5,494 bases of DNA from Escherichia phage Lilleto. The stretch is taken from the sequence record MK629529.1, one strand, 5' to 3'. Within the stretch, counting starts at the first letter, position 1. The number at the start of each line of letters is the position of its first letter. The notes below the pieces were generated by a model. It was not told where the DNA came from. It ran no database searches and worked only from the letters and a program-made list of their open reading frames with translations. Shown here one piece after another: positions 1,715 to 5,434 of this stretch. The position numbers were made by a program, and so were the translations under genes.

Positions 1715-1892
1715 GGCTGATGCCCTTGACGAGGAAAAATGGCTTAACATGCTGGGCGCTCTTCTTAAGGACTGGTTCCGCTACGAAGAACATTTCGTAC
1801 ATGGCAAACAATCTTTAGTTGACATATTAATCGAACGGGGGTTACTATCCCCCACACAAACAACCCGTAACAACAAAGGAAATACCAAATGA
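1632..1892 (+). CDS. C: Protein C (DNA maturation / switch to single-strand synthesis)
   Basis: 86 aa from ATG 1632 ([23 protein letters not shown]...), very similar to phiX174 C. ATG overlaps the A stop as ATGA (1632-1635); stop TGA 1890-1892 overlaps the D start as ATGA. The track's 1614 start is a GTG extension; the ATG is preferred. Confidence 0.9.
1819..1848 (+). promoter_or_regulatory. Candidate promoter P_D inside gene C
   Basis: TTGACA at 1819-1824, 18-nt spacer, TACTAT at 1843-1848, about 40 nt upstream of gene D. phiX174 has a similar TTGACA...TTACTAT arrangement upstream of D (from memory). Confidence 0.45.
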
Positions 1893-3772: not shown

Positions 3773-3812
3773 TGACAGGGGGCGAAAAATTTTAATTTTT
3801 CGCCCCCTGTCA
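3773..3812 (+). other. F-G intergenic hairpin with 17-bp perfect stem; candidate complementary-strand origin element or terminator
   Basis: TGACAGGGGGCGAAAAA (3773-3789) pairs perfectly with TTTTTCGCCCCCTGTCA (3796-3812) around loop TTTTAA. The F-G intergenic region is where G4-type phages carry the primase-dependent complementary-strand origin and where phiX174 carries a terminator. Confidence 0.5.
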
Positions 3813-3862: not shown

Positions 3863-4387
3863 ATGTTCCAGAACTTTGTCACTAAACACAATTCTCCTCA
3901 ATTTACTACTACTATCACAAAGGCTGTCACTCCCGCCGCGTTGGCTCCTATTATTAATACGCCAACCGTTGCGCGTGACAATCTATTTGTGAATCTAACT
4001 ATTACCGCCCTGACTTCTCCGGGCGGTATCTCTGCTGTTGTCGCTATCGACAACTCCTCTCATACCGACAATCAGGTCGTTTCTGTTGCTGCCTCACTTT
4101 CTACTATCGGCAGCCTCGTACCTGTTCTTTGTCGGTTTGAATCTGCTACTGTCCCAACGGCTATCCCCGCCTCTGCGGTTACTTACTATCCGTTGGAATT
4201 TAAATCATCTGATACTACTCTGTCCGTTAAGGACTGCGTTACTGTCTCTACTCTTTCTCGCTCTGGCAATCCTGTTTATGTAGGTATTGCCCTTATTGCG
4301 AAATCATTTGTCGCCGGTACTGTGTACGGCTCCATCTCAATTAATCAGGTTGACCAAGAAATCACAACTCTGCAACCTCTCAAATAA
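3863..4387 (+). CDS. G: Major spike protein G
   Basis: 174 aa from ATG 3863 (MFQNFVTKHNS...), preceded by AAGGA at 3850-3854. Ends ...QVDQEITTLQPLK, like phiX174 G (...QVIKEIICLQPLK). The track ORF begins at a TTG (3815) inside the intergenic hairpin region; that extension is rejected. Confidence 0.93.
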   Translation: MFQNFVTKHNSPQFTTTITKAVTPAALAPIINTPTVARDNLFVNLTITALTSPGGISAVVAIDNSSHTDNQVVSVAASLSTIGSLVPVLCRFESATVPTAIPASAVTYYPLEFKSSDTTLSVKDCVTVSTLSRSGNPVYVGIALIAKSFVAGTVYGSISINQVDQEITTLQPLK

Positions 4388-4396
4388 GGAATCTCT

Positions 4397-5434
4397 ATGT
4401 TTGGTGCAATCGCTGGCGGCATCGCCTCTACTCTTGCTGGCGGTCTAATGTCCAAACTGATGGGCGGCAATAAACAAGCCGCCCCTTTAACTCCCGGACA
4501 AGGCCTCTTTGCTACTCCTGAAACTACTATCTCTGCTGACAATGCAGGTATTCAATCTGTTATGCAGGGACCTAACCCGCCTAGCCCTGATAAGGCGGCT
4601 CCTACATTTACCGAATCTGCCGTCTCCTCACTTAAGGATGCTGGCAAAGGACTCCTCGATGGTACTCTACAAGCTGGCGGCTCTGCTGTTCAACAAGCTC
4701 TTCTTAACAAAATTGGCCTCGGTGGCAAATCTGCTGCTGATAAAGGCAAGGATACTAAAGATTACCTTGCTTCTGCGTTCCCAGAGCTCAACCCGTGGGA
4801 ACGCGCTGGCGCTGGTGCTTCCTCTGCTGGTATGGTTGACGCTGGTTTTGAAAACCAAAAACAACTAACCAAGATGCAACTTGACAACCAAGTCAAAATC
4901 GCTAAGATGCAAAACGAAACTCAAAAGGATATCGCTGGCATCCAGTCTGTCACATCACGCATGAATACTAAGGATTCTGTCTATGCTCAAAATGAAATGC
5001 TCTCTTACAACCAAAAAGAATCTATGTCACGCGTTGGCGCTATTCTCGAAAACACAAGCCTCACCAAACAACAACAAGTTTCTGAAATTATGCGCCAAAT
5101 GCTTACTCAGGCTCAAACCTCAGGACAGCACTTTACTAACGCTCAAATCCAAGAACTTACTCGAAAAGTCGGTGCTGATATTGATGCTGTTCGTGCTAAC
5201 ACTGAACGCACCCATGTAGAAACTGACCGCTCTAAACAGGAAGTCCAAAACTCACGTTATGCTTCATCACAGGTCGGTAAAACCGCCAAGGACGTATCAA
5301 ATGTCATTAGTGACGCATCTTCTGGTATTGTTGATTATTTTCGCGGCGTTGATAAAGCTGTGGCTGACACTTGGAACAATTATTGGAAAGATGGTAAAGC
5401 CGACGGAGTAGGCTCAAATATGTCTCGCAAATAG
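4397..5434 (+). CDS. H: Minor spike / DNA pilot protein H
   Basis: 345-aa ORF: [20 protein letters not shown]-terminus, glycine-rich region, and the KDGKADG.GSN.SRK C-terminus of phiX174 H. AAGGA at 4386-4390 upstream of ATG 4397. Stop TAG 5432-5434. Confidence 0.95.

Follow-up and report, generated by a model that had tools for sequence, protein, structure and literature searches.

An inverted repeat around the -10 hexamer of promoter P_D within gene C of Escherichia phage Lilleto and related G4-like phages

Introduction

Phages of the Bullavirinae are not known to use any RNA polymerase other than the sigma-70 enzyme of the host. P_D is a sigma-70 promoter located inside gene C, and it drives the expression of D, E, J, and the downstream genes; the D mRNA of phiX174 starts 9 nt after its -10 hexamer. 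In the phages of the G4 type, primase primes complementary-strand synthesis at an origin in the F-G intergenic region. Promoters associated with inverted repeats are known from other systems. In the early promoters of the N4 virion RNA polymerase, in Frpo of the F plasmid, and in the minus-strand origin of filamentous phages, the hairpin itself is the promoter that is recognised; it carries hexamers within its stem or has a particular loop of 3 nt, and a dedicated polymerase is used. Promoters of the rrnB P1 type have a G:C-rich discriminator, which is associated with short-lived open complexes and with stringent or supercoiling control. In addition, 5'-terminal stem-loops of the ompA type in E. 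coli are stable hairpins that stabilise the mRNA and precede a strongly expressed coding region by a short distance.

The phage phiX174 relies wholly on the host RNA polymerase, and its promoter pD raises transcription only 2.5-fold (bioRxiv 10.1101/2020.03.05.979765). The -35 hexamer of the phiX174 P_D is located at 320-325, and four substitutions there reduce the D transcripts (PMC3003669). In the G4-like phage ID11, recurrent laboratory-selected D-promoter mutations at positions 1908-1911, 1932, and 1935 delay lysis (PMC4958007 and its supplement). Such mutations were found in 62 of the 68 wells, which indicates that the strength of P_D is a recurrent target of selection (PMC4958007).

Here, we describe a short G:C-paired inverted repeat that flanks the -10 hexamer of P_D in Escherichia phage Lilleto (MK629529.1), its distribution among the relatives of this phage, and the explanations that may account for it.

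Results

The window, that is, the whole stretch of DNA that was analysed (5494 nt), is the complete genome of a G4-like microvirus (Microviridae, Bullavirinae) belonging to the Lilledu/SECphi17 group. Among Escherichia phages, Lilledu, lillemer, Lilleput, MG1, and Lilleen share 95.5-97.7% identity with it, and SECphi17 shares 93%. Olsen et al. placed this wastewater group in Gequatrovirus (PMC7552041). The ORF table and the annotation of Lilledu put gene A at 1-1635 and genes F, G, and H downstream of D. Gene C, which encodes the DNA maturation protein of 86 amino acids, lies on the plus strand at 1632-1892, as judged from the Lilledu annotation, the translation of the window, and the Pfam Phage_C family found on homologues; it encloses the whole element described below. 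Gene D, encoding the external scaffolding protein, lies on the same strand at 1889-2344, and its start codon shares bases with the stop codon of C in ATGA. The sequence AAGGA at 1876-1880 of the plus strand corresponds to the Shine-Dalgarno sequence of D.

In a consensus scan, TTGACA-18 nt-TACTAT on the plus strand matched the consensus at 10 of 12 positions and was the top sigma-70 site of the window. The -35 hexamer TTGACA (1819-1824) is homologous to 320-325 of phiX174 (PMC3003669) and to 1907-1912 of ID11. The 18-nt spacer (1825-1842) carries a run of five G at its 3' end, and the -10 hexamer TACTAT occupies 1843-1848. From the promoter geometry, transcription would start at 1854-1857, 6-9 nt past the hexamer. 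The region from -35 to -10 aligned without gaps with those of phiX174, G4, ID2, ID18, and ID52. The promoter shares its position in gene C, its TTGACA, and the protein context VDIL..ERGLLS with P_D of phiX174, G4, and ID11. Furthermore, it has the 18-nt spacer and TACTAT in common with phiX174, whereas G4, ID2, ID18, and ID52 have TATTAT after TTGACA and 18 nt, and ID11 also carries TATTAT. The ID11 D-promoter mutations map to 1820-1823 in the -35 hexamer and to 1844 and 1847 in the -10 hexamer (1932 A>G and 1935 A>G). The first-pass annotation of this DNA had placed a candidate -10 hexamer of P_D in the loop of a hairpin. This placement is borne out by the position-for-position homology with phiX174 (PMC3003669) and by the ID11 mutations that fall on the hexamers; to the extent that it can be judged from sequence and homology, the assignment of P_D is sound. 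The hexamers differ even among close relatives: the -35 hexamer of SECphi17 is TTAACA, and the -10 hexamer is TACTAT, TAATAT, TATTAT, or TGCTAT. This variation suggests ongoing tuning. The spacer (ATATTAAT) partly resembles the plus-strand origin, and the true origin is located at 414-431.

The hairpin consists of GGGGG at 1837-1841, TTACTAT at 1842-1848, and CCCCC at 1849-1853 of the plus strand, exactly as first described. The codons GAA CGG GGG TTA CTA TCC CCC ACA CAA were confirmed to encode ERGLLSPTQ of gene C, and the D start codon (1889) lies 36 nt downstream of C1853, close to the distance of about 40 nt noted earlier. The 5' arm is formed by positions 2-3 of Arg CGG and by Gly GGG and would cover approximately -18 to -14 relative to the expected start site. 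The loop, which carries the -10 hexamer, is composed of the two Leu codons and the T of the Ser codon. The 3' arm is formed by positions 2-3 of Ser TCC and by Pro CCC, and it also constitutes a C-rich discriminator between the -10 hexamer and the start site. Overlapping genes were considered as a constraint on the wobble bases of the stem and were rejected: gene K ends at 1714 (ID2 annotation), and the other frames and the opposite strand hold only mechanical ORFs. G5 and C5 each occur twice in the 5494 nt, and the other pair lies inside an 18-bp hairpin in the F-G intergenic region. When the -10 region of P_B was checked for the same motif, only a 3-bp GGC/GCC flanking repeat was observed, which is at the chance level.

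The G5/C5 hairpin was predicted to be the minimum-energy structure both as RNA and as DNA. For the isolated hairpin, the predicted energy was -10.3 kcal/mol in the RNA form (z -2.1) and -4.7 kcal/mol in the DNA form. When 100 nt of flanking sequence were included on either side, the predicted pairing probability was 0.85 for RNA and approximately 0.5 for DNA. Because the 5' arm is located upstream of the -10 hexamer and is never transcribed from P_D, the hairpin cannot be present in the P_D-initiated mRNA. Folding is possible in the viral plus-strand ssDNA and in read-through RNA from P_A or P_B; in principle, the extruded strand of supercoiled replicative-form DNA would be a third such molecule. 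If the 2.5-fold effect of pD in phiX174 is taken as a guide (bioRxiv 10.1101/2020.03.05.979765), roughly 40% of the D-region RNA would come from upstream and would hold the hairpin. The hairpin is clear of the Shine-Dalgarno sequence and the start codon of D. The first-pass annotation had suggested that a structure in the ssDNA or mRNA may affect D/E expression. Of these molecules, the P_D-initiated mRNA has to be dropped, and plus-strand ssDNA and read-through RNA are those that can fold.

We compared the hairpin with known structured elements. It resembles the Bullavirinae terminator T_J (2439-2456 in the window) in that both are short GC-rich stem-loops of the plus strand, conserved with one compensatory change among nine Gequatrovirus genomes. 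Unlike T_J, it is located within a coding region and is followed by ACACAAAC with no T/U run. An intrinsic (Rho-independent) terminator was rejected on this account: ACACAAACAACC lies downstream without a T-run, and a terminator scan gave sites at 2439-2456 and elsewhere and none at 1837-1853. A search with Rfam 15 gave no match at the gathering score anywhere in the window. A small promoter-linked inverted repeat in a phage with an ssDNA stage recalls the N4 early promoters, Frpo, and the minus-strand origin of filamentous phages. A hairpin promoter of this type (N4/Frpo/M13) was rejected, with a loop of 7 nt, a -35 hexamer 13 nt outside the stem, and a -10 hexamer that is unpaired in the loop. 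The element is like the ompA-type stem-loops in that a stable hairpin is found a short way ahead of a strongly expressed coding region. As a 5'-terminal stabiliser of the mRNA it was rejected because its 5' arm (1837-1841) precedes the -10 hexamer (1843-1848), so that it is not at the 5' end of the P_D transcript; such a role could matter only after processing of read-through RNA. With promoters of the rrnB P1 type, P_D shares a G:C run between the -10 hexamer and the start whose C bases are on the non-template strand, a likeness of sequence alone; unlike in rrnB P1, the -35 hexamer of P_D is a perfect consensus.

Homologous regions were gathered from GenBank phages, IMG/VR, metagenomes, and Logan/ENA assemblies. 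A DNA pattern search with the KDWF..HFVHG codons gave only five IMG/VR and three metagenome contigs, a search with the C protein gave mostly chimeric phiX174 reads and four useful natural variants, and the G4-like GenBank records were largely laboratory lines of ID11. The lineage of the window comprised the window itself, Lilledu, Lilleput, lillemer, MG1, Lilleen, SECphi17, OBLN L040, SRR L043, ERZ/ERR L045-47, and PJNS002/L044, and the stem was kept in all of them (12/12). In a nine-genome alignment, the identity to the window was 80% for PJNS002, 90% for OBLN L040, and 93% for SECphi17; the C protein of L043 was 88% identical to that of the window. The loops in the lineage vary while the stem is kept (TTACTAT, GTACTAT, CTACTAT, TTGCTAT, TTAATAT, and ATATTAT). 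PJNS002 has GGGGGAT-ATT-ATCCCCC, a 7-bp stem with a 3-nt loop (-12.3 kcal/mol as RNA). In L045-47, the sequence is GGGGA-TTAATA-TCCCC; the change of GGG to GGA costs a G:C pair in the register of the first-pass annotation, and an A:T pair arises when the register is moved by one base, so that 5 bp are kept. The predicted RNA pairing probability was 0.75-1.0 across most of the lineage; for L043 in its context, it was only 0.13 as RNA and 0 as DNA.

Outside the lineage, most G4-like phages have a weak GTGG/CCAC repeat shifted by one base. ID2 has GTGGA-CTATTA-TCCAC (-6.2 kcal/mol), and G4, ID52, and ID18 have only GTGG...CCAC, at about -4 kcal/mol (for G4, -4.1 kcal/mol as RNA, z -1.2). In NC6, CGC replaces CGT; the resulting C x A mismatch is uncompensated, and the hairpin is lost (-0.2 kcal/mol). 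In L048, a metagenomic ID18-like sequence, CCAT gives a G.T pair and the complementarity is lost. The P_D of phiX174 differs from that of the window in its -10 flanks (GTGGA...CTGAG against G5/C5 with a 5-bp all-G:C stem), as does that of G4 (GTGG...CCAC). Indeed, alignment and folding agreed with the earlier impression that phiX174 has no equivalent stem; it has a weak GGATT/AGTCC repeat of its own (-4.2 kcal/mol, z -0.6). The alpha3-like phages have no repeat, and gene C ends at this point in them. As for the complementarity in relatives, which had been named as the point that would decide for or against the stem, the outcome is divided: the lineage keeps it and the pair 1838:1851 changes from G:C to T:A between lineages; the shared register is shifted by one base from that first drawn, and NC6, L048, phiX174, and the alpha3-like phages are without it.

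The register common to the G4-like phages pairs G1837 with C1852, 1838 with 1851, G1839 with C1850, G1840 with C1849, and 1841 with T1848, and is not that originally proposed. The bases were paired in 88-91% of the cells in the shared register, compared with 56-62% in slid controls; in the originally proposed register, they were paired in only 61% of the cells. The sole covarying pair was 1838:1851, which is G:C in 8 sequences and T:A in 8/17 or 9/19 in the two alignments. This covariation corresponds to a single lineage split, in which the synonymous change of CGT to CGG is coupled with a change of Thr to Pro. Several independent double-sided changes were sought as a sign of conserved structure; one event was seen, and the breaks in NC6 and L048 were uncompensated.

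For multiple testing, nine complete Gequatrovirus genomes were aligned and scanned for all gapless 4-bp inverted repeats with a loop of 3-9 nt. Only three were Watson-Crick paired in 9/9 genomes, and double-sided change was present in two, the P_D stem and the T_J hairpin (2442). In the control relations, conserved 4-mers with co-change numbered 0/11 for mirror, 0/8 for parallel-complement, and 2/6 for direct repeats, or approximately 0.7 per type; hence, one covarying case per genome is not surprising. Within the lineage, variation was seen at 1 of the 4 wobble sites of the stem, compared with 11 of the 15 remaining four-fold sites of C and D (p ~0.06). The varying stem site is that of the GGG-to-GGA change in L045, after which five base pairs again form in the alternative register. 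Just downstream of the stem, positions 1856 and 1865, both four-fold sites, are also invariant, so that a general promoter or leader constraint could explain the low variation of the stem. The evidence for selection on complementarity is suggestive and not significant after the genome-wide controls.

The four wobble bases of the stem belong to minor codons (CGG, 3.4%; GGG, 4.5%; TCC, 15%; CCC, 12.5%), and their joint probability is 2.9e-5, a figure that is local and post hoc. A low local codon probability is largely expected for any hairpin that was picked as striking. From the codon usage, G at both the CGG and GGG wobbles has a probability of approximately 0.006 even if G or C is required at both. 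It is precisely the G of these rare codons that is paired with the fixed C, and the common alternatives are CGC and GGC. A perfect 5-bp core of equal stability was found in only 2% of the synonymous-codon shuffles, and GC-only 5-bp stems with loops of 3-9 nt were found in 42-44% of the dinucleotide or synonymous shuffles. A coding hairpin at least as stable was present in 97% of the synonymous-codon-shuffled genomes. In folds of 23 nt, the P_D hairpin ranked fourth among the coding hairpins of the window, after those at 4462 (-14.2 kcal/mol), 4004 (-12.8 kcal/mol), and 4719 (-10.7 kcal/mol). The results are thus mixed, and the excess over chance depends on the null model used. A case for exceptional stability was rejected, since the restricted result of 2% was judged to be an artefact of the class definition and the general scan of 23-nt folds gives 97%. 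Stability alone does not argue for function.

The duplex was also examined by nearest-neighbour calculation. The 5' arm CGGGGGT had a duplex stability of -10.97 kcal/mol, compared with -10.98 kcal/mol for CGTGGCC of G4. The arm is therefore no more stable than its G4 counterpart, and duplex GC-clamping does not explain the rare G-ending codons; a duplex GC clamp was rejected for the 5' arm and would account for the 3' arm at most. The discriminator, with CCCCC right after the hexamer, had a value of -10.1 kcal/mol, compared with -8.0 to -9.2 kcal/mol in relatives, and was approximately 1.7 kcal/mol more stable than that of G4 or ID2. GC-richness alone would predict the common codons CGC and GGC, and this is the best single argument for pairing. 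In the saturation mutagenesis of phiX174, the detrimental synonymous changes in C codons were at V63 and D64 (-35), L71 and L72 (-10), and S73 and S75 (downstream flank), and R69 and G70 were absent from this list (bioRxiv 10.64898/2026.07.25.740675). Hence, in phiX174 the promoter constrains the 3' flank although no hairpin is present, and the 5' flank is free. In the evolved lines of ID11, no recurrent mutation was found in either arm, and the only one was a singleton, 1927 G>T.

Discussion

That the hairpin may be chance was raised in the first-pass annotation, and it is still the single most likely reading. With a probability of about one half, we consider the hairpin to be an incidental, lineage-specific by-product of the Arg-Gly and Ser-Pro codons that flank P_D, any effect being exerted through ordinary promoter context. 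The amino acids R, G, S, and P fix 6 of the 10 stem bases, which is in line with a by-product. The core of P_D is written inside gene C, with two Leu codons spelling the -10 hexamer and with Arg-Gly before it and Ser-Pro after it serving as the arms. Most G4-like phages carry CGT GGN ... TCC ACN at this place, which yields the weak GTGG/CCAC repeat. In the Lilledu/SECphi17/PJNS002 lineage, a change of Thr to Pro (ACA to CCC) and the wobble changes CGT to CGG and GGC/GGA to GGG produced G5/C5. The complementarity is real, and it allows plus-strand ssDNA and read-through RNA to fold a small hairpin. An effect on D/E expression, if any, would most plausibly come from the promoter context of the duplex replicative form, where a C5 discriminator has to be melted and G is present at -14, and the folded hairpin would be a less likely route. 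We infer both the absence of function of the hairpin and any effect of the discriminator.

It is possible, although we hold it to be doubtful, that the complementarity is maintained by selection and that a 17-nt stem-loop in P_A/P_B read-through RNA, viral ssDNA, or both tunes D/E expression or genome handling. Such a stem-loop might shield the processed read-through mRNA, pause RNA polymerase crossing P_D, or stay SSB-free on ssDNA. The element would tentatively be regarded as a lineage-specific cis-regulatory structure in gene C, present in a weak ancestral form in most Gequatrovirus and reinforced in Lilledu/SECphi17/PJNS002. The rare codons coincide exactly with the bases that pair, the lineage shows an unchanging stem around a variable loop, and the G-to-A change in L045 switches the register and keeps 5 bp. 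The switch of 1838:1851 from G:C to T:A and the excess of pairing in the shifted register over the slid controls point in the same direction, as do the high predicted RNA pairing in most of the lineage and the share of D-region RNA that would arise by read-through. However, the one covariation event was matched by the controls, the stability was not above chance genome-wide, NC6 and L048 lose the pairing, and the predicted pairing of L043 is low. The hairpin is also absent from the P_D-initiated mRNA, leaves the Shine-Dalgarno sequence and start codon of D untouched, has no U-tract that would make it a terminator, and has no Rfam match; moreover, we know of no role for such a structure in any Bullavirinae phage.

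An explanation by duplex promoter adaptation only appears unlikely to us. In that case, the G run (with G at -14) and the C run of the non-template strand would each be selected through RNA polymerase kinetics, for example open-complex lifetime or sensitivity to supercoiling, temperature, or growth rate, and their complementarity would be coincidental. The strength of P_D is often selected, as the ID11 wells and the four phiX174 -35 substitutions indicate (PMC4958007, PMC3003669). The variation of the -35 and -10 hexamers among close relatives, the more stable discriminator, and the detrimental synonymous changes at S73 and S75 of phiX174 are consistent with such selection. However, the upstream arm is not more GC-stable than that of G4, GC-richness alone favours CGC and GGC, and R69 and G70 are not among the detrimental synonymous sites of phiX174. 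It is very improbable that the duplex inverted repeat is a protein operator centred on the -10 hexamer or a small cruciform that presents this hexamer single-stranded in the supercoiled replicative form. The repeat is indeed symmetric about the hexamer, and in PJNS002 a 3-nt loop is closed by a 7-bp stem, a geometry that is able to extrude in N4 early promoters. However, extrusion would hardly be expected of a 5-bp stem that closes a 7-nt loop. Depending on the lineage, the half-sites are separated by loops of 3, 6, 7, or 8 nt, which argues against a fixed operator, and we know of no sequence-specific transcription regulator in the Bullavirinae.

P_D controls the scaffolding protein D and the lysis protein E, and it is among the most-hit targets in the experimental evolution of phiX174 and ID11. 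If the repeat is functional, it would be a rare structural cis-element that, in a genome of 5.5 kb, is overprinted on coding sequence and promoter alike, and it would provide a new adjustable control for a model system of regulatory evolution. If it is incidental, which we judge to be slightly more likely, it serves as a caution that, in compact genomes, chance easily produces striking short GC hairpins and even a single compensatory change.

Other hairpins in the genome

The hairpin around the -10 element of P_D, the sigma-70 promoter of gene D inside gene C, consists of GGGGG (1837-1841) and CCCCC (1849-1853) flanking the loop TTACTAT. The only further G5 and C5 runs in the genome were found in the F-G intergenic region, where a perfect 18-bp hairpin with the arms TGACAGGGGGCGAAAAAT and ATTTTTCGCCCCCTGTCA occupies 3773-3812. 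When folded as DNA, this hairpin gave -28.7 kcal/mol (z -7.4), and it is probably either the T_F terminator or the complementary-strand-origin hairpin of G4-type phages. At 2439-2456 lies a terminator hairpin of the T_J type, GTGGGACCACGGTCCCAC, with a T-rich tail after it. The core of this hairpin was kept across nine Gequatrovirus genomes, in which its arms read either GGAC/GTCC or GGGC/GCCC, a compensatory difference.

Within coding regions, the most stable of all the short hairpins was located in gene H (4462-4484, GGGCGGC-AATAAACAA-GCCGCCC; RNA -14.2 kcal/mol), and the P_D hairpin was far less stable than this one. A second such coding hairpin (-12.8 kcal/mol) was present in gene G at 4004-4027.

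Corresponding sites in phiX174 and at P_B

phiX174 (L034 in our collection of relatives) has a weak inverted repeat of its own, GGATT/AGTCC, around the P_D -10 (340-357). The repeat gave an RNA folding energy of -4.2 kcal/mol with a z of -0.6, and its register differs from that of the G4-like phages. The codon at its 3' end, S75 TCC, was reported as synonymous-sensitive in a 2026 saturation mutagenesis preprint on phiX174 (bioRxiv 10.64898/2026.07.25.740675). The homologue of phiX174 P_B was located inside gene A at approximately 971-1003 as TTGCAA ... TACTCT, followed by ATGCCCATCGC; its -10 is bracketed by no more than 3 bp of repeat (GGC/GCC), as would be expected by chance.

The plus-strand origin core of phiX174, ACTTGATATTAATAACAC, was matched exactly at 414-431, and the octamer ATATTAAT is common to this core and the P_D spacer, where it occupies 1825-1832.

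Natural variation of the P_D hexamers

The -35 element of P_D, TTGACA at 1819-1824, corresponds to TTAACA in SECphi17 (L023, 1561-1566). This base change is identical to 1909 G>A, a laboratory-selected D-promoter mutation of the G4-like phage ID11 (PMC4958007 and its supplement). In ID2-type phages, the -35 is TTGACT. The strength of P_D thus seems to vary in nature. The -10 hexamer (1843-1848) was TACTAT, TAATAT, TATTAT or TGCTAT in close relatives, as seen at the homologous sites of SECphi17, a further relative (L024), an SRR assembly (L043) and an ERZ/ERR assembly (L045). Some of these -10 changes also alter protein C (Leu to Ile); therefore, promoter and protein co-vary at the -10 codons.
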